Source: Candidatus Saccharimonas sp.
GTDB lineage: Bacteria; Patescibacteriota; Saccharimonadia; Saccharimonadales; Saccharimonadaceae
Assembly: GCA_015256915.3 (NCBI GenBank)
Contig: CP076101.2
Location: 270,001-302,000 of the forward strand
Length of the DNA stretch: 32,000 bases
Direction of reading: 5' to 3'
The translations under genes were made by a program, and so were the position numbers. A model generated the notes under the pieces. It was given only the letters and a program-made list of their open reading frames with translations. It searched no databases and had not been told where the DNA came from. The first letter of the stretch is position 1; each line of letters starts with the position of its first letter. Positions 1,142 to 7,984 of this stretch are shown piece by piece.

Positions 1142-1384
1142 TTAATAGGGTTTCCAATTATGTTTGTAGATTGTCAACGAATTGCCAATTATGTCGACCT
1201 CGTAGACTTCCCCCGCACTCTCAAAAAGAAAGTGCGTTTTATTTTTATTGGCTCCGATTCGGCAATATTCTTGGATGTAGGCACAGAGGTTTGGGGCTTC
1301 TCCTTTATCAAAGCTTCCTGAAGGGTTTTCTTTTGTTAGTTTTCTCAGCTCTTTTAAAGCTCTTCCGCTAATATTATAGCTCAT
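1142..1384 (-). CDS. hypothetical small protein (80 aa)
   Basis: ORF-track frame. The ATG at 1384 is preceded by GAGGAGGAGGAAG, which comes from the EEEEE codons of the upstream gene. It overlaps that gene by 11 nt. No family recognised. Confidence 0.6.
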   Translation of the reverse strand: MSYNISGRALKELRKLTKENPSGSFDKGEAPNLCAYIQEYCRIGANKNKTHFLFESAGEVYEVDIIGNSLTIYKHNWKPY

Positions 1385-1706
1385 TTTCTTCCTCCTCCTC
1401 TATTTTTGTAACTTCAATTGTATTTTCTTCAAGAAATTCAACGCTAAATTTTCGATTTTTCGAATACTGAAAACTATCGAAAATATCAAAACCGGTAATT
1501 TTTTTCTTACCGAAAGATTTTCGAATTTGTGATAATTCTTCAAAAACTTCTTTTCGAATTGGATTTTTTTCGTCCTCAACTAAAACCGTTCCCGTGCGAT
1601 TTGACTCATTGATTGCGTTTAAGTCTTGCATAAGTTTATCGCTGTCGTCATCATAAAGAAGTTCATCGCCAGCAGAAGTACGAAAAACAAAATTATAAAA
1701 AGCCAT
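1374..1706 (-). CDS. hypothetical acidic protein (110 aa)
   Basis: ORF-track frame. AAGAGGA Shine-Dalgarno upstream of ATG 1706, and TATAAT at 1753-1758 (minus) further upstream. D/E-rich with a C-terminal EEEEENEL. No family recognised. Confidence 0.65.
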   Translation of the reverse strand: MAFYNFVFRTSAGDELLYDDDSDKLMQDLNAINESNRTGTVLVEDEKNPIRKEVFEELSQIRKSFGKKKITGFDIFDSFQYSKNRKFSVEFLEENTIEVTKIEEEEENEL

Positions 1707-1785
1707 AATTAATTCCTCTTTCTAATGTGCTACTCAAACGAGCGCTTTTAATATTATACAACTTTTTTAAAGAAAAATCAAGACT

Positions 1786-1811
1786 AAAAAAATCCCCGCA
1801 AAATTGCGAGG
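1786..1811 (-). terminator. rho-independent terminator of the 116-aa gene
   Basis: Stem 1794-1800 / 1805-1811 (7 bp). The single mismatch on the plus strand becomes a G-U wobble in minus-strand RNA. A run of 7 U follows (1786-1792). It abuts the stop at 1812. Confidence 0.65.
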
Positions 1812-2162
1812 TTATGACGGCCAGAGTTTTTTGACTTCTGTGCTTTCGCCGCTGCGGCAAAAAATTTCGAAATTATAATCTTCATTCGAATCTTGTATAA
1901 TTTGATAGTAATACGCCATATCGTTGATGTCTTGCATTTCGAAAGTATCGAAAATTTCTTCCATCAGCACCATTTCGTTACTAAAAATTCTACCGCCAGC
2001 CGTTATTTTAAGGGAATCTTTTCCATTAAGGAGCGTTTTGAGATTTTTCACGATTTGCTCCGCAGATTTACCCTTAATCTCAATAGATTTAGCTTTTGCG
2101 ATTTCTGCCGAAAGCTGTTTTTCGCTTACGGCTTCATCGACTACTTTAATGAAAATATTCAT
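1812..2162 (-). CDS. hypothetical acidic protein (116 aa)
   Basis: ORF-track frame. GGAGG lies 5-6 nt upstream of ATG 2162. It has its own terminator. No family recognised. Confidence 0.65.
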   Translation of the reverse strand: MNIFIKVVDEAVSEKQLSAEIAKAKSIEIKGKSAEQIVKNLKTLLNGKDSLKITAGGRIFSNEMVLMEEIFDTFEMQDINDMAYYYQIIQDSNEDYNFEIFCRSGESTEVKKLWPS

Positions 2163-2257
2163 AATGTGCCTCCATAAGCTACAAATTTCGGCGGACCGAT
2201 GAGCTTATTGTTTAAATTTTATAACAAGATTTTTTAAAATGCAAGCTTGAGCTTAAT

Positions 2258-2278
2258 AAAAAAGCCGCAAATGCGACT
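2258..2278 (-). terminator. rho-independent terminator of the 118-aa gene
   Basis: Minus-strand RNA AGUCGC-AUUU-GCGGCU (6-bp stem with one G-U) followed by six U (2258-2263). It lies 13 nt after the stop at 2291. Confidence 0.55.
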
Positions 2279-2290
2279 TTGTATGAAGGA

Positions 2291-2647
2291 TTACGTTAGA
2301 AATGGTGGTATCTCAAGTTCTTCTTGAGAATTACGCGGTATTTTGATATTTTCTTCAATCCGATGTGGAATTTCTTCATCGTGTAATATTTTTACGACTT
2401 TGAAATTCCCATCAACCAACAAGCATATTTGAATAATCTCTTTTCTTGAGATAAATCGGTTAGGAGATTCACCTCTAAGATAAACAATTTCCGCTGATCC
2501 GTGAATTTCAACAATCTCTTTATCTAGATCGTAGACTGCTTTTGGTGAAATATAAATCGCTTTATTTCCATCAGCTTCGAGCCTCACTGGTGTTCCAGTT
2601 GTTATTGCTCGAAGTAGTTCTTCCTGTAAGAAAAATTGTTGATTCAT
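2291..2647 (-). CDS. hypothetical protein (118 aa)
   Basis: ORF-track frame. Strong GGAGGA Shine-Dalgarno upstream of ATG 2647. No family recognised. Confidence 0.65.
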   Translation of the reverse strand: MNQQFFLQEELLRAITTGTPVRLEADGNKAIYISPKAVYDLDKEIVEIHGSAEIVYLRGESPNRFISRKEIIQICLLVDGNFKVVKILHDEEIPHRIEENIKIPRNSQEELEIPPFLT

Positions 2648-2953: not shown

Positions 2954-3214
2954 ATTGTTCCGATCGAGGCAATTTCTGTATAAATTACCTCCGAGGATTA
3001 ATAAAACCGCGTAAAAAATACATACTTTAACAATCTGGCATTATTTAACAGAAGTCTTCCCTTTCGAAAGCAGGCTAATCAATAATAATTTAGAGCTTAA
3101 GCAATTATACTAGGAAACTTCAAAACATAACCTTTAGTGGGCGATTCGAGCTGGATATTGGAGATCCACCCGACCATACTTCAGTTCAAACCGCTCACTA
3201 AAAAGGAACAAATT

Positions 3215-3574
3215 ATGCAAAATACTAACGAAACCGAGTTTGAAAAAGAGCTTGAAAAAATCAAGAACTCTAAAATTGAACTCAAACCAATAAAACAAAA
3301 ACAAGGAGAAAATAAAATGAAAAATATTAAGAAATTTAACTGGAAAAAATTAATCGAAACAACTAAAACAATTGTCATTTATACAGCGGTTATTGCTGGT
3401 TTAGCCTTCTACTTCGGTATGAAACAAGGTGAAGCTAATACAAAAGTAAATAATGACAAATTAGTTGAGGCAATTCAAAATTTCAGTTCTCAGCTCCAGT
3501 GCTGTTTTCTTAACTTTTTCTGCCATATTTCCTCTTTAAATTTACTATTACAAATTTATATTACTAGTAAATAA
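3215..3574 (+). CDS. hypothetical small single-pass membrane protein (start uncertain: 3215 or 3317)
   Basis: The track ORF starts at GTG 3137. In-frame ATG 3215 (MQNTNE..) follows AAAGGA, and ATG 3317 (MKNIKKFNWKK..) follows AAGGAG 3303-3308 at 8-nt spacing. One TM segment is present (IVIYTAVIAGLAFYFGM). The Cys-rich, hydrophobic C-terminal tail looks like read-through into non-coding DNA. Confidence 0.4.
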   Translation: MQNTNETEFEKELEKIKNSKIELKPIKQKQGENKMKNIKKFNWKKLIETTKTIVIYTAVIAGLAFYFGMKQGEANTKVNNDKLVEAIQNFSSQLQCCFLNFFCHISSLNLLLQIYITSK

Positions 3575-3643
3575 CCTAGTTAATGTAGTTGATTTTAAAA
3601 GCTAAAAGATATAAAATCTAAATATAAGAAAGGTATTTATATT

Positions 3644-4081
3644 ATGAATTTTATAGATAAACTAAGAATTAAAAACCTAAATATGCGCCAATATGTTTTA
3701 GGTAACTACGACGGCGACTTCGAAGGAATAGAAGAAATAGTCGCTAAAGCTCGCCTTAAAATTACTTATAATGGTGGCGTAGAACTCCAATTTTCATATG
3801 GTTCAGCTTTTAAATATGAAACTGTACAGACTTTTTCTTGGGAAGAGATTAAAGGCTTCGATTATCGCCAAATTAAAGATTCTGCGGGTAAAAAGACTAA
3901 ATATATTTTCGAAAACATGCTTTACACCACAAAAGGAACCCTAGTATTAAGGGGTGAATATACTAAAGGTGGTAAAATGGGTTCAAATGCTTACACTTAT
4001 GATGGTTTGCTAATGGCTGCTACTAGCGCTAAGAATCGAATTAATGCTTGCTTGAAATTACATAAAAAATACGCCGACTAA
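3644..4081 (+). CDS. hypothetical protein (145 aa)
   Basis: ORF-track frame. AAGAAAGG upstream of ATG 3644. No family recognised. Confidence 0.6.
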   Translation: MNFIDKLRIKNLNMRQYVLGNYDGDFEGIEEIVAKARLKITYNGGVELQFSYGSAFKYETVQTFSWEEIKGFDYRQIKDSAGKKTKYIFENMLYTTKGTLVLRGEYTKGGKMGSNAYTYDGLLMAATSAKNRINACLKLHKKYAD

Positions 4082-4117
4082 ACTATTTCTCAATATAAAT
4101 TAAATGAAAGGATCTAT

Positions 4118-4633
4118 ATGCTAGAAAAACTCACAGGTCAAAAAACTTTTAAGGAAGCTTTTAAAAATGTCGTATGGTTCAAATTCACGGTCATTGCCTT
4201 GGTTGGAATATTTTTAATCGCTAGTGTCGTGCATGCGATCAATAATCCAGCAAAGCCAACCGCTCCAGTAAATACTAACACTCCAGCAAAACCAGATCAG
4301 CAACAAACAGCCAAAACTCCAAAACTGGTAGAAAAAGCGACCTATAACACGGCCTCTGGTATATCTTTTACGGTTAAAAAATCAACCGATTTAGCAAACC
4401 AGCCATATTATAATCTCCAAGCAAATATTTCAAAGAATGACCCAGCTTGGCGCAACAAAGCAAAAGAAGTTATTAAATTCATCAGTGAAAAAACCCAACA
4501 AAAAGACTTCTCAGTTTCTATATCAGATAAATCAACCGGAACAGACTTACTCAACTGGAATACCGGCAAGAATAAAGCAATCTTCTACACCTACCCAGTA
4601 GGATCTAACGAATCTGAAGCTTTCGATCTATAA
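4118..4633 (+). CDS. hypothetical membrane-anchored, probably extracytoplasmic protein (171 aa)
   Basis: AAAGGA precedes ATG 4118. N-terminal TM helix (FKFTVIALVGIFLIASVVHAI) is followed by a P/T/A/Q-rich linker (NPAKPTAPVNTNTPAKPDQQQTAKTPK) and a globular part. No family recognised. Confidence 0.7.
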   Translation: MLEKLTGQKTFKEAFKNVVWFKFTVIALVGIFLIASVVHAINNPAKPTAPVNTNTPAKPDQQQTAKTPKLVEKATYNTASGISFTVKKSTDLANQPYYNLQANISKNDPAWRNKAKEVIKFISEKTQQKDFSVSISDKSTGTDLLNWNTGKNKAIFYTYPVGSNESEAFDL

Positions 4634-4634
4634 T

Positions 4635-4664
4635 CAAAAAACAGACCTTTGTAGGTCTGTTTTA
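4635..4664. terminator. bidirectional rho-independent terminator (convergent 4118..4633 and 4685..4972)
   Basis: Perfect 8-bp stem ACAGACCT (4641-4648) / AGGTCTGT (4653-4660) with 4-nt loop. A6 before and TTT after. Confidence 0.8.
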
Positions 4665-4684
4665 ATTTTACTCGCAAGCAATTT

Positions 4685-4972
4685 TTATTCCAAACTCTCT
4701 TGCATATATCTATATACTATCCTAATTACCTCTTGCACGTCATCGTTAGTGTTTTTATATTGAATATTTTCATACGCTAGCTCTCCATACTCTCTAATAG
4801 CTTCACTAATAAGAGCGTGAATAAAAGATTGAGTCGCTCCATCAACTTTATTAAAATCTAATGTGATTTTTTCACCCTTTGCTAGCATTGGTAAAATTAT
4901 TTCTTCCCGTATTTTTTTAGCTAATTCTTTATTTTCGGCGAAATTACCAACTTCTTTATATAAAATAATCAT
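4685..4972 (-). CDS. STAS-like small protein (DUF4325-type, anti-sigma-antagonist-like fold predicted)
   Basis: 95 aa. The core ..EKITLDFNKVDGATQSFIHALISEAIREYG.. matches the pattern I associate with DUF4325 STAS-like domains (h-x-LDF-x-x-V-x3-S/T-x-SF). Its ATG overlaps the upstream stop as ATGA (4969-4972). Assignment is from motif memory, with no HMM run. Confidence 0.7.
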   Translation of the reverse strand: MIILYKEVGNFAENKELAKKIREEIILPMLAKGEKITLDFNKVDGATQSFIHALISEAIREYGELAYENIQYKNTNDDVQEVIRIVYRYMQESLE

Positions 4973-5934
4973 AGAAATTTAGGCTCCTTGTATTTAGTCC
5001 TTTTACGATCTCGGATAGCATCATCATATACCGAACTTATAAGTTTTAATATAGCTTGAAACTCAGGCGTATTGTCAAGAGACATATCTATAGCCACTAA
5101 AGTACCTTTAAAATCTCCCTCTATGATAGTATATCTATGAGGATCGTCGAATGGATCTATTTTTAATTTAAATATATTATTTCTTTTATCTCCTTTTAAA
5201 AGAGTGTATTCTGCTTTACCAGAAAATATAGTGAAATAACTCCTTGTAATTCGTGCTATAGATTTAGTAAAAAATAGCCCAGCTCCAGCATTATCTCTTG
5301 TTCCACCTTCTTTATGAGTAGTACCTGTAATTCCTGGCATAAGACTAAGCCTAATAGCCGAAATGTCGTCTTTAGGACGCCAATATTCATTCATGCTTTT
5401 CCATATACCAATTCCCGTATCACATATACCTATGCTAATCTTATTTTTTTTAGGATAATAATTAGCCGCAACTACTGCCCCCTTATCAGATAGAGAATGT
5501 TCAAGAACATTTCTAACTAGCTCTCCTATTATATACTTGATAATTCTGCTTTCTTTCTCGGGTAGGTGTAGTAATGGCACCATTTCAGCGATAAATTTAG
5601 ACTGATCATCAGCAGTTTTTACAACCTGTAAAGGTATATATCTTCCAGATGATTCTTTCTTGTTATATCTAAAAGGTGATTCCGTCTTTAGAAAATTAAA
5701 AAGACCCATAGAATCAAGATGTTTCCCGTTATCTGGCAGCGGCAGTTCAATAGAACTATTCTCCTTTCCGGTTTTTATAGCCAAGGCGGCAGTAAAAGCT
5801 AATATGGCTGGATGTACAGTTATCCATTTCTTATGAGTCTCCACCTCTAACGAATCAGGGTTAGAAAAATCAATAGATTTAATAAACCTTGAAAAATTTC
5901 TTAGGTGAGCTTGATTAGATAAAAATATTCTCAT
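4969..5934 (-). CDS. GHKL-superfamily ATPase (anti-sigma-factor / Ser-kinase-like) with an unassigned N-terminal domain of about 130 aa
   Basis: 321 aa. Bergerat-fold motifs are present: N-box GELVRNVLEHS, G1 ICDTGIGI, G2-like RDNAGAGLFF. There is no HisKA/H-box and no TM segment. No Shine-Dalgarno; the ATG sits 6 nt after a consensus -10 box. Confidence 0.8.
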   Translation of the reverse strand: MRIFLSNQAHLRNFSRFIKSIDFSNPDSLEVETHKKWITVHPAILAFTAALAIKTGKENSSIELPLPDNGKHLDSMGLFNFLKTESPFRYNKKESSGRYIPLQVVKTADDQSKFIAEMVPLLHLPEKESRIIKYIIGELVRNVLEHSLSDKGAVVAANYYPKKNKISIGICDTGIGIWKSMNEYWRPKDDISAIRLSLMPGITGTTHKEGGTRDNAGAGLFFTKSIARITRSYFTIFSGKAEYTLLKGDKRNNIFKLKIDPFDDPHRYTIIEGDFKGTLVAIDMSLDNTPEFQAILKLISSVYDDAIRDRKRTKYKEPKFL

Positions 5935-5940
5935 ATTTAA

Positions 5941-5969
5941 ATTATACCCGTAGGTCGTATTTTTGTCAA
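5941..5969 (-). promoter_or_regulatory. perfect-consensus sigma70 promoter, leaderless, for the GHKL/STAS operon
   Basis: On the minus strand: TTGACA (5969-5964), exactly 17 nt, TATAAT (5946-5941), 6 nt, ATG (5934). There is no Shine-Dalgarno. Confidence 0.7.
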
Positions 5970-5987
5970 TATACGACCTACGGGTAT
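5944..5987. repeat. perfect 17-bp inverted repeat (candidate operator or cruciform) overlapping the promoter
   Basis: ATACCCGTAGGTCGTAT (5944-5960) and its exact reverse complement ATACGACCTACGGGTAT (5971-5987), with a 10-nt spacer TTTTGTCAAT that contains the -35 hexamer. One arm fills the promoter spacer and part of the -10. Confidence 0.9.
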
Positions 5988-6174
5988 TTTAATATATTTT
6001 TTCACCCCTACAAATGGTCTATAAATCCTACCCAGCCACAGCTTTTGTCGCCTGCGTTGCAACATCATAAATCGACTTTTTAGCTTGATTCTGTTCTACA
6101 TGCAACATAGTTGATATAGATTGTATTTAACGTATAGCAATAAATATTTTCACGAATATTACAATTAAATTATT

Positions 6175-6338
6175 TTAAAGATAATTTAATCGATCTAAAG
6201 CCTCTGTATTTGATAGAGTCTGAAGAAACTCTTCATTATCTAAAGCGTCTGTGATGTCATTGTAATATCGCTTCACTGAATCGGTTGATTGATTTTTTTT
6301 GCGTAATCTCTAATTGATTGAGACAATTCTTTAAACAT
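6175..6338 (-). pseudogene. small ORF split by an A8 homopolymer (21-aa frame plus 33-aa frame; a 54-aa product if the tract were A9)
   Basis: ATG 6338 gives MFKELSQSIRDYAKKINQPIQ*, with the stop at 6273. One extra A in the A8 run (6293-6300) gives MFKELSQSIRDYAKKNQSTDSVKRYYNDITDALDNEEFLQTLSNTEALDRLNYL*, ending at 6175. TATAAT (6350-6345) lies 6 nt upstream of the ATG and TTCGCA (6373-6368) 17 nt further. Below the ORF-track length cut-off. Confidence 0.3.
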
Positions 6339-6501
6339 AACTAAATTATACTATAAAATAGACTGATTGCGAAATTATTATATAAGATATTATAGTTATT
6401 TATGTTATAGATTAAACTTGCCAACTAAAAATCGAAGGAGTAATCTCTATTTTTCATTTAATTCTGACTAAAATAGAATTGCTTTTATGGAAGTAAATTT
6501 G

Positions 6502-6735
6502 TTATTTTTCAATTTCGAAAATCTTAAATCGCGATTTTATACCAGTCTTTAGGGAGACTCGGCTTTTTGAAACGCCGAATTCTTCTGCCAAAAGTTTAAT
6601 TACTGCCAGATTTGCCTTACCTTCAATTGCTGGCTCACGAATAAAAATCTCAAAAAACTCACCGTTTTTATCTTGTGATTTTTGAATGAGATTTCCTTTT
6701 TTCGAATTTGGCTTAATTTTGCAACGAATCTTCAT
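6502..6735 (-). CDS. DUF167 / YggU-family small protein
   Basis: KIRCKIKPNSKKG....FEIFIREPAIEGKANLAVIKLLAEEFGVSKSRVSLKTGIKSRFKIFEI fits the YggU pattern (P-x-A.., PP-x-x-GkAN, G-x-x-sR-x-K). The start is taken at ATG 6735. The track start 6783 and ATG 6774 are alternatives, and all overlap the end of tgt. Confidence 0.7.
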   Translation of the reverse strand: MKIRCKIKPNSKKGNLIQKSQDKNGEFFEIFIREPAIEGKANLAVIKLLAEEFGVSKSRVSLKTGIKSRFKIFEIEK

Positions 6736-7984
6736 TTTGCTTAGTTTCGAAGTCTTTTGCTCGCTCTTCGCCATAATATTCATTTAAAAATTGGCGCTTA
6801 TATTCAAAAAACGTACCATTTTCAAGGCTTTCGCGGATTTTATCAATGGTATTAATTACGAAAAATTCATTATGAATTGAAGCAAGTGTACTGGCGAGAA
6901 TTTCGTCCGCACGGAAAAGATGATTAACGTAGGCTTTTGTGAAATTTTGGCAAGTGTAGCAATTGCAATTGCTATCAATCGGTGTGAAGTCTTCTTTAAA
7001 CTTGGCGTTTTTAATATTAATTCGCCCAGAATAAGTAAAAATTGCGCCGTTTCGAGCTTGACGAGTTGGTGCCACACAATCGAAAGTGTCGATACCAAAT
7101 TCTACACCTAAAAATAGATCGGCTGGTTGTGCGCCCATTCCTAACAGATGCCGTGGTTTTTCTTCTGGCAAGGTTGTGTTCACCCAAGTTAGAACTTCAG
7201 GGATTTCTTCTGGCTGAAAAATTCCACCAATCCCAAAGCCGTCAAAATCTCTCGAGCCCAAAAAACTTGCGCTTTCTTTTCGAAAATCTTCTTCGCGCGC
7301 ACCTTGAACTACCGCGAAAAGCGCTTGTAGATTTTCGCCTTCTGCAATATGCTCGGCGTTTAACTCATTGTGGCGTTTCAAACACTTTTCAGCCCAAAAA
7401 TGAGTTTTATCCAATGCGGATTTAATTTGTGCACGGCCAGCTAGCGGTGAAGTTAATTCATCAAAAGCCATGTGAATATCGGCGCCAATTTTATGCTGAA
7501 GCTCCATTGAAATTTCGGGGCTCATAAAAATCTTTTCGCCCGAAATGTGAGATTTAAACCAAACTCCGTCTTCGCCAACTTTTGCGAGCTGATTTGAATT
7601 ATGGCGTGCTAAATTTGAATCACCCTTCGAAATGTGTGAAGTTGCATCAATTCCCTTTTTGTAAGCCATTCCAAGTGAAAAAACTTGAAAACCGCCTGAA
7701 TCAGTAAAGGTTGGTGCACTCCAATTCATAAACTTATGGATTCCGCCAGCTTTTGCTAGAATATCTGCACCAGGCCGAAGCATTAGATGGTAGGTATTTG
7801 CTAGTACGGCCTGCGCACCAGTTGAGCGGATTTGCTCGGGCGTCATTGCCTTCACTGTTGCATTAGTTCCGCCTGCAATATAAGCTGGGGTTTTAATTTC
7901 ACCGTGCGGAGTTTGAATTACACCAGTTCTTGCCAAAGTGCCATTGAGGCGAGTTTTAATTTCGAAACTTAAAGCTTTTTTCAT
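6713..7984 (-). CDS. tgt: queuine tRNA-ribosyltransferase
   Basis: 423 aa with the hallmark motifs FTDSGGFQV, LLGMGAQPADL, DTFDCVAPTRQARNG and the zinc site CNCYTC...H. Confidence 0.95.
   Translation of the reverse strand: MKKALSFEIKTRLNGTLARTGVIQTPHGEIKTPAYIAGGTNATVKAMTPEQIRSTGAQAVLANTYHLMLRPGADILAKAGGIHKFMNWSAPTFTDSGGFQVFSLGMAYKKGIDATSHISKGDSNLARHNSNQLAKVGEDGVWFKSHISGEKIFMSPEISMELQHKIGADIHMAFDELTSPLAGRAQIKSALDKTHFWAEKCLKRHNELNAEHIAEGENLQALFAVVQGAREEDFRKESASFLGSRDFDGFGIGGIFQPEEIPEVLTWVNTTLPEEKPRHLLGMGAQPADLFLGVEFGIDTFDCVAPTRQARNGAIFTYSGRINIKNAKFKEDFTPIDSNCNCYTCQNFTKAYVNHLFRADEILASTLASIHNEFFVINTIDKIRESLENGTFFEYKRQFLNEYYGEERAKDFETKQNEDSLQN

Follow-up and report, generated by a model that had tools for sequence, protein, structure and literature searches.

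Introduction

Two kinase-substrate switches, CapK/CapS and VapK/VapS/VapC, were described by Chambers et al. (EMBO J 2026, PMC13373217; preprint February 2026), and they are the closest described systems to the gene pair analyzed here. The pair encodes a GHKL-type kinase and a STAS-like (DUF4325) protein and lies at 4685-5934 on the minus strand of a 32,000-nucleotide stretch of the Candidatus Saccharimonas sp. contig CP076101.2 (positions 270,001 to 302,000). This whole stretch is called the window, and all coordinates refer to it. CapK, which is composed of helix-turn-helix (HTH), STAS and GHKL domains, is switched on by single-stranded DNA (ssDNA) and phosphorylates a conserved serine of CapS, a STAS protein with a winged HTH (wHTH) (PMC13373217). 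The phosphorylation splits the CapS repressor dimer, and the downstream immune operon is de-repressed (PMC13373217). VapK (STAS-GHKL) phosphorylates VapS, a STAS domain with a short C-terminal helix, and the PIN toxin VapC is freed; VapKSC is a toxin-antitoxin (TA)-like anti-phage system in which the VapS C-terminal helix inhibits VapC (PMC13373217). In both kinases, an aromatic residue located in the STAS-GHKL groove mediates activation by ssDNA. The same report describes Cap operators as palindromes made from TTAA half-sites, gives a linkage of about 20% to restriction-modification (R-M) genes, counts 443 and 289 loci for the CapK/CapS and VapKSC systems, and provides the structures of VapS (PDB 9Z7O) and CapK-CapS (PDB 9Z71-9Z73).

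Both systems were thus described only in 2026 and only with an obvious output, either a wHTH repressor or a PIN toxin. PMC13373217 contains no mention of DUF4325, of bacteria of the candidate phyla radiation (CPR) or of an effector-less two-gene form. The other literature on DUF4325 comprised three incidental mentions in a full-text search. In a classification of PIN domains, the PIN.4 family is 'transcriptionally coupled to DUF4325 genes' (PMC5499597), and this PIN.4 is very likely the VapC of the later-named VapKSC.

By sequence comparison, the window pair is homologous to VapK/VapS and is related, at a greater distance, to CapK/CapS; it is without the features that define the Cap or Vap output, namely wHTH, HTH and VapC. 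The preliminary description of this DNA, made from the letters alone, had held that the pair could not be placed in any described family; the homology to VapK/VapS and CapK/CapS (PMC13373217) overturns that statement. Overall, we consider it reasonably probable that the two genes form a self-contained sensor-switch cassette like those of CapK/CapS and VapK/VapS. For the comparisons below, 100 related loci were fetched, representing 77 unique pairs.

Domain organization of the two proteins

The kinase gene (4969..5934, minus strand) encodes 321 aa and ends in TGA, and its stop codon overlaps the ATG of the STAS-like gene (4685..4972, minus strand; 95 aa) in an ATGA at 4969-4972. Both open reading frames (ORFs), their coordinates and strand, the overlap and the motifs quoted in the preliminary description were all present. 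These motifs, ELVRNVLEHS (aa 138-147), CDTGIGI (aa 171-177) and NAGAGLFF (aa 215-222), include the N box (E138/N142/H146), the G1 box (D172-G174-G176) and the G2 box (G217-G219), which are invariant in the family and in alignments reaching the E. coli VapK. The Pfam matches to HATPase_c and HATPase_c_2 were sub-threshold (20 and 17 bits). The AlphaFold2 (AF2) model of the kinase, with a predicted local distance difference test (pLDDT) score of 72 overall and about 90 for aa 1-105, has two domains. The GHKL (Bergerat-fold) kinase domain comprises aa about 115-290 (5065..5592, minus strand), as supported by the invariant boxes, hhalign and Foldseek. Its top PDB structures in Foldseek were the SpoIIAB entries 1til, 1tid, 1th8 and 1l0o (prob 1.00, E about 1e-3), in agreement with the proposed GHKL protein of the SpoIIAB/RsbW kind, and Foldseek also matched CheA P4 and histidine kinase domains. 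The single-sequence search of solved structures gave noise only.

The N-terminal region of about 130 aa, previously left as unassigned, turned out to hold a confidently modeled STAS-like alpha/beta domain at aa 1-105 (5620..5934, minus strand), recognized from the AF2 model and from its colinearity with VapK. Its topology is beta-alpha-beta-alpha, with a beta-strand at aa 2-5. Foldseek aligned this domain with the RsbV chains 6m36_C and 6m37 over about 80 residues (root-mean-square deviation 2.1-3.0, prob 0.85-0.91), with non-significant E values of 0.16-0.41. K36-W37 and P42 are invariant here, and the domain may, by analogy with CapK/VapK, form part of a putative ssDNA-sensing groove. The C-terminal extension, aa 291-321 (4972..5064, minus strand), consists of a long helix, modeled at aa 290-312, and a basic tail, IRDRKRTKYKEPKFL. 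Its invariant residues are I307, R308, R310, K311, P318 and F320. The net charge of the last 30 aa is +4.4, and the whole kinase has an isoelectric point (pI) of 9.4 and a net charge of +11; the extension is a candidate for contact with nucleic acid or with a partner.

The relation to VapK was assessed with the sequence from the E. coli vapKSC locus (L101). In hhalign, the kinase family matched this protein with a probability of 92.6% and E 4.5e-7 (136-302 on 136-287). A multiple alignment via intermediates (e.g. P0345) showed both domains to be colinear with VapK, with P42 and the GHKL catalytic residues invariant. In the large protein, a STAS-like domain is joined to a GHKL kinase domain of the SpoIIAB type, and the protein is homologous to VapK and colinear with it.

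The kinase has no HisKA or H-box match in Pfam, as had been stated for the H-box, and the NCBIfam histidine kinase matches span the N box only, with E 0.003 or worse. No HTH family match was obtained for the kinase in Pfam or NCBIfam. PADLOC has no dedicated model for the pair, and its sole match was to the N-terminal part of the DrmA profile. In this match, kinase aa 72-250 aligned on positions 77-252 of PDLC02567 (DrmA, DISARM helicase; 1750 positions) with E 8.5e-13. Apparently, some DrmA-type proteins carry such an N-terminal STAS-GHKL module, which would be another redeployment of the sensor domain.

The small protein matched Pfam DUF4325 over aa 18-80 (E 7e-15, 54.9 bits, cut-off 23), and its earlier assignment as a STAS/DUF4325 protein is confirmed. 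The segment ITLDFNKVDGATQSFIHALISE is found at aa 36-57. It contains ATQSF (nt 4823-4837), in which T47 and S49 are invariant across the family; a conserved Ser/Thr lies where a possible phospho-acceptor had previously been noticed, and T47 or S49 is the candidate. Other invariant positions include G9, F11-K15, G45-F50, H52, S56 and V86-S93, and conservation extends to the C-terminal helix VYRYMQESL. With a pI of 4.9, the protein is acidic, and it has no HTH match in Pfam; only about 15 residues remain past DUF4325. VapS of PDB 9Z7O itself matches Pfam DUF4325 (E 1.4e-17) and is the top PDB match of the window STAS family profile, but with E 0.068. In the profile alignment, VapS S48 stands opposite Q48, which is flanked by the invariant T47 and S49. 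The small protein is a VapS-type STAS domain of the DUF4325 family in minimal form, with the invariant T-Q-S starting the second helix, and is the presumed substrate of the kinase.

The structural matches also raise the reading of a classical anti-sigma/anti-anti-sigma pair (RsbW-RsbV or SpoIIAB-SpoIIAA type), with the sigma factor and the phosphatase encoded elsewhere in the genome. Among solved structures, SpoIIAB and RsbV match best, a weak spIIAB match comes from NCBIfam (E 0.008), and the JGI labels relatives 'anti-sigma regulatory factor'. However, in the identical copies of the window locus (24 contigs), genes for a sigma factor, PP2C or PIN are absent within 10 kb, and neither sigma factors nor PP2C are among the families recurring beside the 77 unique pairs. 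The cassette moves among phages, R-M operons and unrelated chromosomal sites. An additional STAS-like domain at the N-terminus sets the kinase apart from the 140-aa anti-sigma factors and is shared with CapK/VapK, and the nearest characterized homologues of the kinase are not anti-sigma factors. We regard this reading as highly improbable. The earlier statement that no sigma factor or PP2C is nearby was borne out by the 10-kb survey of the identical copies, which also speaks against the pair being one arm of a sigma-factor regulon.

The conserved palindromic promoter

The pair is preceded by a sigma-70-type promoter (5941..5969, minus strand), with the -35 TTGACA at 5969..5964, a 17-nt spacer and the -10 TATAAT at 5946..5941. 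The promoter matches the consensus at 12/12 positions and is the sole perfect site among 20 promoter-like matches in 4400-6800. It overlaps the inverted repeat ATACCCGTAGGTCGTAT / ATACGACCTACGGGTAT (5944..5987), a candidate operator for which a hairpin or a recombination site is the alternative. The arms at 5944-5963 and 5968-5987 are perfect over 17 nt, or 95% over 20 nt; the -35 sits in the 10-nt center of the palindrome, and the right arm occupies the promoter spacer. As ssDNA, the palindrome folds with -20.9 kcal/mol (z = -8.8). It is present once in the window, with 0 copies expected by chance.

The palindrome was compared across 63 distinct upstream regions of related loci. The consensus tACCCGTAG-(7 nt)-TATTGACA-aaa-(7 nt)-CTACGGGTA-aAAT was found in 63/63 of them, and TTGACA and a TAnAAT-like -10 are conserved throughout. 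The promoter and its palindrome, already noticed in the preliminary description, are features shared by the related loci. The palindrome is kept between loci whose proteins are about 60% identical, whereas the flanks diverge, and the sequence further upstream is unrelated between loci. In the window, 6 nt separate the -10 from the kinase ATG, so the predicted mRNA is leaderless or nearly so. The -10-to-start spacing is 6-11 nt in 62 of the 63 upstream regions. A leaderless or near-leaderless start thus appears to be a family trait and not the mark of special repression at the window locus.

The outer blocks and the central -35 are almost invariant across loci. The inner-arm classes switch on both arms jointly (TGCT/AGCA, TACA/TGTA, CGTG/CACG and CGTA/TACG). 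Covariation was evaluated in a 53-sequence alignment against 500 shuffles and slid controls. The arms pair in 85.8% of cells, and changes on both sides were found in 103 cells, compared with 49 +/- 7 in the shuffles. The covariation score was 0.297 versus 0.174 shuffled, with 0/500 shuffles reaching 0.297, and the slid controls gave at most 0.12. The two positions at the outer/inner junction (A4 pairs 13-38 and 14-37) are mostly unconstrained. Additional copies occur as well: a second palindrome without TTGACA lies about 48 nt upstream in about 14/63 regions, and three lineages have a copy just downstream of the pair, which in the L067 group belongs to a direct repeat (about 75 nt) found on both sides of the cassette. 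Copies inside one locus have the same inner-arm class. This pattern fits an operator read by a cassette-encoded dimer with drifting specificity, and promoter and palindrome together are, as judged from their conservation, a real functional element.

We related the operator class to the divergence of each protein region, and all regions gave weak and similar correlations (Spearman 0.21-0.43). The correlation does not single out which protein region reads DNA. The kinase or a kinase-STAS complex is more likely to bind the palindrome than the acidic STAS protein alone.

The palindrome might instead be mainly structural or recombinational, acting as a hairpin or cruciform for insertion or as a read-through insulator, with the cassette as constitutive cargo. 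Its long arms (17-20 bp) and stable fold agree with this explanation, as do the boundary of between-lineage homology, which coincides with the left edge of the palindrome, and the insertion of the cassette between housekeeping genes (pth|mraZ and GT2|sucC). The direct repeats flanking the pair in the L067 group, and the copies at both ends in the L031 group and L065, point the same way. Most loci, however, have a single copy placed exactly over the consensus promoter, and the unconstrained junction positions fit half-site recognition better than a continuous stem. Generally, no U-tract follows on either strand, and the cassette encodes no recombinase. We consider a mainly structural or recombinational role very unlikely. 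As a separate candidate, an intrinsic terminator was rejected because there is no conserved U-tract after the palindrome on either strand.

Several groups of loci show particular arrangements of the element. In L067, L068, L070, L073, L075 and L076, the pair is inserted between pth and mraZ-mraW and is flanked by the direct repeats of about 75 nt, each with the full promoter palindrome; the downstream one lies about 1326 nt after the kinase start and is preceded in L070 by five tandem CCAATAG units. These repeats could be an insertion footprint, or a 'solo promoter' remaining after deletion of a second cassette. In L031, L037, L038, L043, L045, L057, L064, L085 and L086, the STAS stop codon and the ribosome-binding site of a sucC/sucD-like operon are separated by a palindrome copy (CCCGTAGAACGTTTTTATATCAAAACACGCTCTACGGGGAGGA) that has no TTGACA and is found about 1260 nt after the kinase start. 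Such a housekeeping operon may now be under the element of the cassette. The protein P0011 (334 aa; L006-L009) has its called start 13 codons too far upstream, and the extension MTGNVPYGYNICN is the translated promoter palindrome, a gene-calling artefact in public protein sets.

Family, fusions and genomic neighborhood

For each protein, more than 2000 relatives were found at 90% clustering, and their full-length identity is typically about 60%. A profile search against 1.84 billion representatives resulted in 2824 clusters with E<1e-3, 90 of them with E<1e-30. The relatives with a source name are mostly labeled as Patescibacteria/CPR (Saccharibacteria, Pacebacteria, Moranbacteria, Nomurabacteria and Gracilibacteria), and one genome locus comes from a Verrucomicrobiales metagenome-assembled genome (MAG). 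The census of the gene pair, a step proposed in the preliminary description, placed the DUF4325 gene directly after the kinase gene in 99/100 loci, the exception being cut by the contig end.

Among distant relatives, single chains of the order STAS-GHKL-linker-DUF4325 were found in PHROG 5816 and in P0370, P0379, P0385 and P0388 (400-428 aa). The latter four look like genuine fusions; TQSF is retained in P0370, P0379 and P0388, and no third domain was found in the fused forms. Foldseek on the AF2 model of a fused protein gave generic GHKL matches only. P0259 (451 aa) was rejected as a natural fusion; it is probably a frameshift artefact, since its linker (WERHGRRHRRKRRSWRS...PQPQAP) resembles high-GC genomic sequence read through out of frame.

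No third gene is conserved beside the pair. Clustering of 348 neighbor ORFs gave lineage-specific synteny groups only, and in the Pfam and PADLOC censuses of 106 neighbor representatives no family occurred in more than 3. A PIN domain was not among the families recurring in these representatives, and tblastn with VapC found nothing in the window or the 100 loci. The absence of a recognizable output component, as first described, thus extends to the neighbor censuses and to the 10 kb around the pair. In about 16/77 unique pairs, the next gene on the same strand, at a gap of -1 to +25 bp, is type III mod or type I hsdR. These R-M-linked layouts consist of the pair followed by type III Mod and the Res helicase-nuclease, or of HsdM/HsdS just upstream, then the pair and HsdR. 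Genes for OLD/AAA_15, RhuM, DUF3644, AbiE and Cas9 are close by in several loci. The other sites of the cassette include pth|mraZ-mraW, glycosyltransferase (GT2)|sucCD and a position upstream of ychF. The cassette is mobile, occurring as a phage moron, within R-M operons and between housekeeping genes, which agrees with the earlier description of a horizontally mobile pair often found among defense genes.

Two neighborhoods were recorded in addition. In a Saccharibacteria MAG (L005, 16365-16966 and upstream), the pair heads a dense defense island with a type III Mod, two AAA_15/OLD-like ATPases, a Res helicase-endonuclease and then a Cas9 gene. In L011, L016, L017, L019 and L020, the first gene, in a Pacebacteria-like context, encodes an FtsH with an intein and a LAGLIDADG homing endonuclease, as indicated by the Pfam families Intein_splicing and LAGLIDADG_3 in the 1072-aa product.

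The neighborhoods bear on two further explanations. The pair might be a complete TA or abortive-infection module, in which the kinase is a toxic effector on a host target, the STAS protein its antitoxin or pseudosubstrate, and the palindrome a TA autoregulatory operator. The compact operon with overlapping genes, strong promoter and palindrome would suit such a module, as would its mobility (phage moron and defense islands), its relation to the TA-like anti-phage system VapKSC and the lack of any other recognized effector near the pair. Nevertheless, the kinase is a sensor and not a toxin in the characterized relatives, natural single-chain fusions would be unusual for a toxin and its antitoxin, and there is no sign of toxicity. 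We therefore rate this explanation as unlikely.

Alternatively, the system might be split, the STAS protein holding a trans-encoded partner (a host or phage nuclease or an R-M subunit) as VapS holds VapC, and the kinase releasing this partner upon ssDNA. The invariant VYRYMQESL helix is comparable to the VapC-inhibiting C-terminal helix of VapS, the pair recurrently adjoins Mod/Res or HsdR, and DUF4325 also pairs with PIN.4 nucleases. Nonetheless, the survey found no conserved neighbor across the 77 unique pairs and no candidate within 10 kb of the window pair or its identical copies, and the fused forms are without a third domain; a split system is accordingly quite unlikely in our judgment.

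Phage origin of the window copy

Three IMG/VR contigs hold 92-96% identical copies of the pair. One of these loci, L102, is a siphophage structural module with the large terminase, an 831-aa portal, the protease/major head protein, four small ORFs and the pair, after which come three small opposite-strand ORFs and the genes for a 621-aa tape-measure protein and for tail proteins. The closest copies of the pair are a moron with its own promoter and terminator in a Saccharimonas siphophage. The terminator of the window copy is a bidirectional intrinsic terminator with an 11-bp stem (4638..4663), 22 nt past the STAS stop codon; it is kept in the closest relatives and closes the two-gene operon. 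A search of cultured phages gave four weak partial matches only.

According to blastn, the DNA shared by window and phage is limited to 4093-6083, or to 3541-4050 plus 4635-6081, and the nucleotide homology to L102 and L001 stops at window 6083. Just inside this end, 6031-6081 (minus strand) is 100% identical to aa 165-181 of L102:7363-7908 in tblastn. The segment represents the last 17 codons of the 181-aa phage ORF, which is directly upstream of the pair in the related siphophage, and this remnant marks the edge of the phage-derived block. On the other side of the pair, the plus strand has two hypothetical ORFs (region 3541..4633), 3644..4081 (145 aa) and 4118..4633 (171 aa), which accompany the pair in phage copies; they have 95.8% and 86.6% aa identity to L104:9316-9750 and L102:9302-9817, respectively, and no Pfam match.

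The window contains no structural phage genes. The 24 contigs with the identical locus share one fixed chromosomal context (DnaB-HK-SecE-NusG-L11-TGT-DUF167-gap-pair-hypotheticals). The window copy is an orphan phage-derived cassette, terminator-ended and with no downstream client.

The foreign origin of the pair is shown by its homology to phage and not by composition. Its GC content is 0.33, against 0.30-0.43 along the window, with no step, and composition was consequently ruled out as a sign of foreign origin; of the earlier statement that the pair sits in compositionally foreign DNA, the origin stands and the compositional part does not. The proposed link to a tRNA is weak, since tRNA-Gln (2789-2863) lies 1.8 kb from the pair with three ORFs in between. 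No tRNA-derived direct repeat or att-like repeat was found at tRNA-Gln, and the absent tRNA-derived direct repeat ruled out integration targeted to the tRNA.

Proposed mechanism and its significance

In the sensor-switch reading that we favor, ssDNA or DNA damage, arising for example from phage replication or restriction, would activate the kinase, and the kinase would phosphorylate T47 or S49 of the STAS protein and alter its binding, as in the characterized relatives. With less certainty, the anatomy of the locus suggests that a product of the cassette represses its own promoter via the palindrome and that phosphorylation would lift this repression. At loci in which mod or hsdR comes next within 25 bp and no terminator intervenes, the switch would raise the expression of that gene, giving a Cap-like controller of restriction. 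For the window copy, the output, if any, would be in trans or through the kinase itself. The specific transcriptional output is put forward tentatively, and we lean somewhat against it.

Several observations weigh against the sensor-switch reading. Neither protein has a recognizable DNA-binding domain in Pfam or NCBIfam, and the STAS protein, at pI 4.9, is acidic. Apart from their common Pfam family, the small protein resembles VapS only weakly (E 0.068; hhalign prob 30%). The invariant W37 is 2 residues out of register with the F/W of distant relatives, and the aromatic residue of the ssDNA contact in CapK/VapK is not cleanly aligned. The palindrome could be a structural or recombination element, as a direct repeat with the palindrome flanks the pair in the L067 group. 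Finally, in most loci, the window included, the neighbors are housekeeping or unrelated genes and there is no client operon.

A broader proposal concerns the whole effector-less branch of CapK/VapK (>2000 clusters at 90%, mostly from CPR and phages). Speculatively, and with rather low confidence, the minimal pair and its co-evolving palindromic promoter might form a complete mobile regulatory unit whose output takes an undescribed route. One such route might be DNA recognition without an HTH by the kinase or by a kinase-STAS complex, leading to damage-inducible control of restriction genes and morons; in another, the palindrome might be both the operator and the insertion site of the cassette.

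The window clade is much larger than the reported CapK/CapS and VapKSC loci and is without either of their outputs. Knowledge of what its phospho-switch acts on would reveal the extent to which the ssDNA-sensing kinase module has been put to other uses. If the pair does control hsdR or mod-res, it would add a new damage-inducible control layer on restriction-modification in organisms with poorly known immunity. Both the conserved operator-promoter and the absent output are directly testable.

Other features of the window

The 568-bp gap at window 5935-6500 is without any ORF of at least 50 aa. Within it, a second promoter-like site, TTCGCA-17-TATAAT, lies at 6373..6345, and an ATG 6 nt past its TATAAT opens a 21-codon ORF (MFKELSQSIRDYAKKINQPIQ). 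This site was recovered as direct repeat D4, with the same 'TATAAT + 6 nt + ATG' layout as the pair; leaderless layouts may be common in the genome of the window.

Small ORFs (80-145 aa) lie on both sides of tRNA-Gln, at 1142-2647 (minus strand) and 3137-3574 (plus strand). They are kept in all contigs of identical context and are not homologous to the genes of phages L102/L104. Five of them were scanned with Pfam, those on the minus strand plus 3317-3574, and none had a match. The Rfam scan reported tRNA and nothing else.

Comparison with known systems

Two-component histidine kinases differ from the window kinase in having the HisKA/H-box that the latter does not have. The SpoIIAB-SpoIIAA and RsbW-RsbV pairs share with it the GHKL Ser-kinase fold, which is the closest solved structure, and a STAS partner whose acceptor, a candidate one in the window protein, lies at the N-terminus of helix 2. 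They differ in that the window pair has no nearby sigma factor or PP2C, its kinase is twice as long with a STAS-like domain of its own, and the cassette is mobile. For loci in which the pair and its palindromic promoter lie just upstream of mod/hsdR, the C-proteins of R-M systems offer a functional analogy only; these are small HTH repressors/activators, unrelated to the proteins of the pair, and any regulation by the pair is putative.

In common with CapK-CapS, the window pair has a STAS-GHKL kinase and, immediately after it, a STAS protein that is the presumed substrate and has a conserved candidate acceptor. In both systems, palindromes overlap the promoter(s) of the module, and the R-M linkage is similar (about 20% there and about 21% in the window clade). 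Additionally, in some relatives of the window pair, though not in the window itself, the module is directly upstream of an immune gene in the same direction. However, the window kinase is without the N-terminal HTH and the STAS protein without the C-terminal wHTH, so the known DNA-binding mechanism of Cap cannot apply. The window operator, CCCGTAG...CTACGGG with 17-bp arms, is unrelated to the TTAA half-sites of Cap, and the clients of the window clade are R-M subunits or none, whereas those of Cap are CBASS, Bub and Thoeris operons.

VapK-VapS is closer. The window kinase is likewise STAS-GHKL without an HTH (321 aa versus 297 aa in VapK), and its partner is likewise a DUF4325 STAS protein of about 100 aa that has a short C-terminal helix and, in the corresponding position, a conserved Ser/Thr; the gene order, kinase and then STAS, and the defense neighborhoods are also shared. 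Kinase identity is nevertheless low, about 19% overall and 25% over the GHKL domain. VapK ends before the segment at aa 291-321, and only the window kinase has the basic C-terminal extension. A VapC/PIN gene is part of VapKSC and is absent from the window, from the 10 kb of the identical copies and from the 100 related loci. Moreover, the window cassette has its own conserved palindromic promoter, and its clade is large, mostly from CPR and also present as a phage moron. This clade is an effector-less form of the recently described kinase-STAS switches, abundant in CPR bacteria and their phages.

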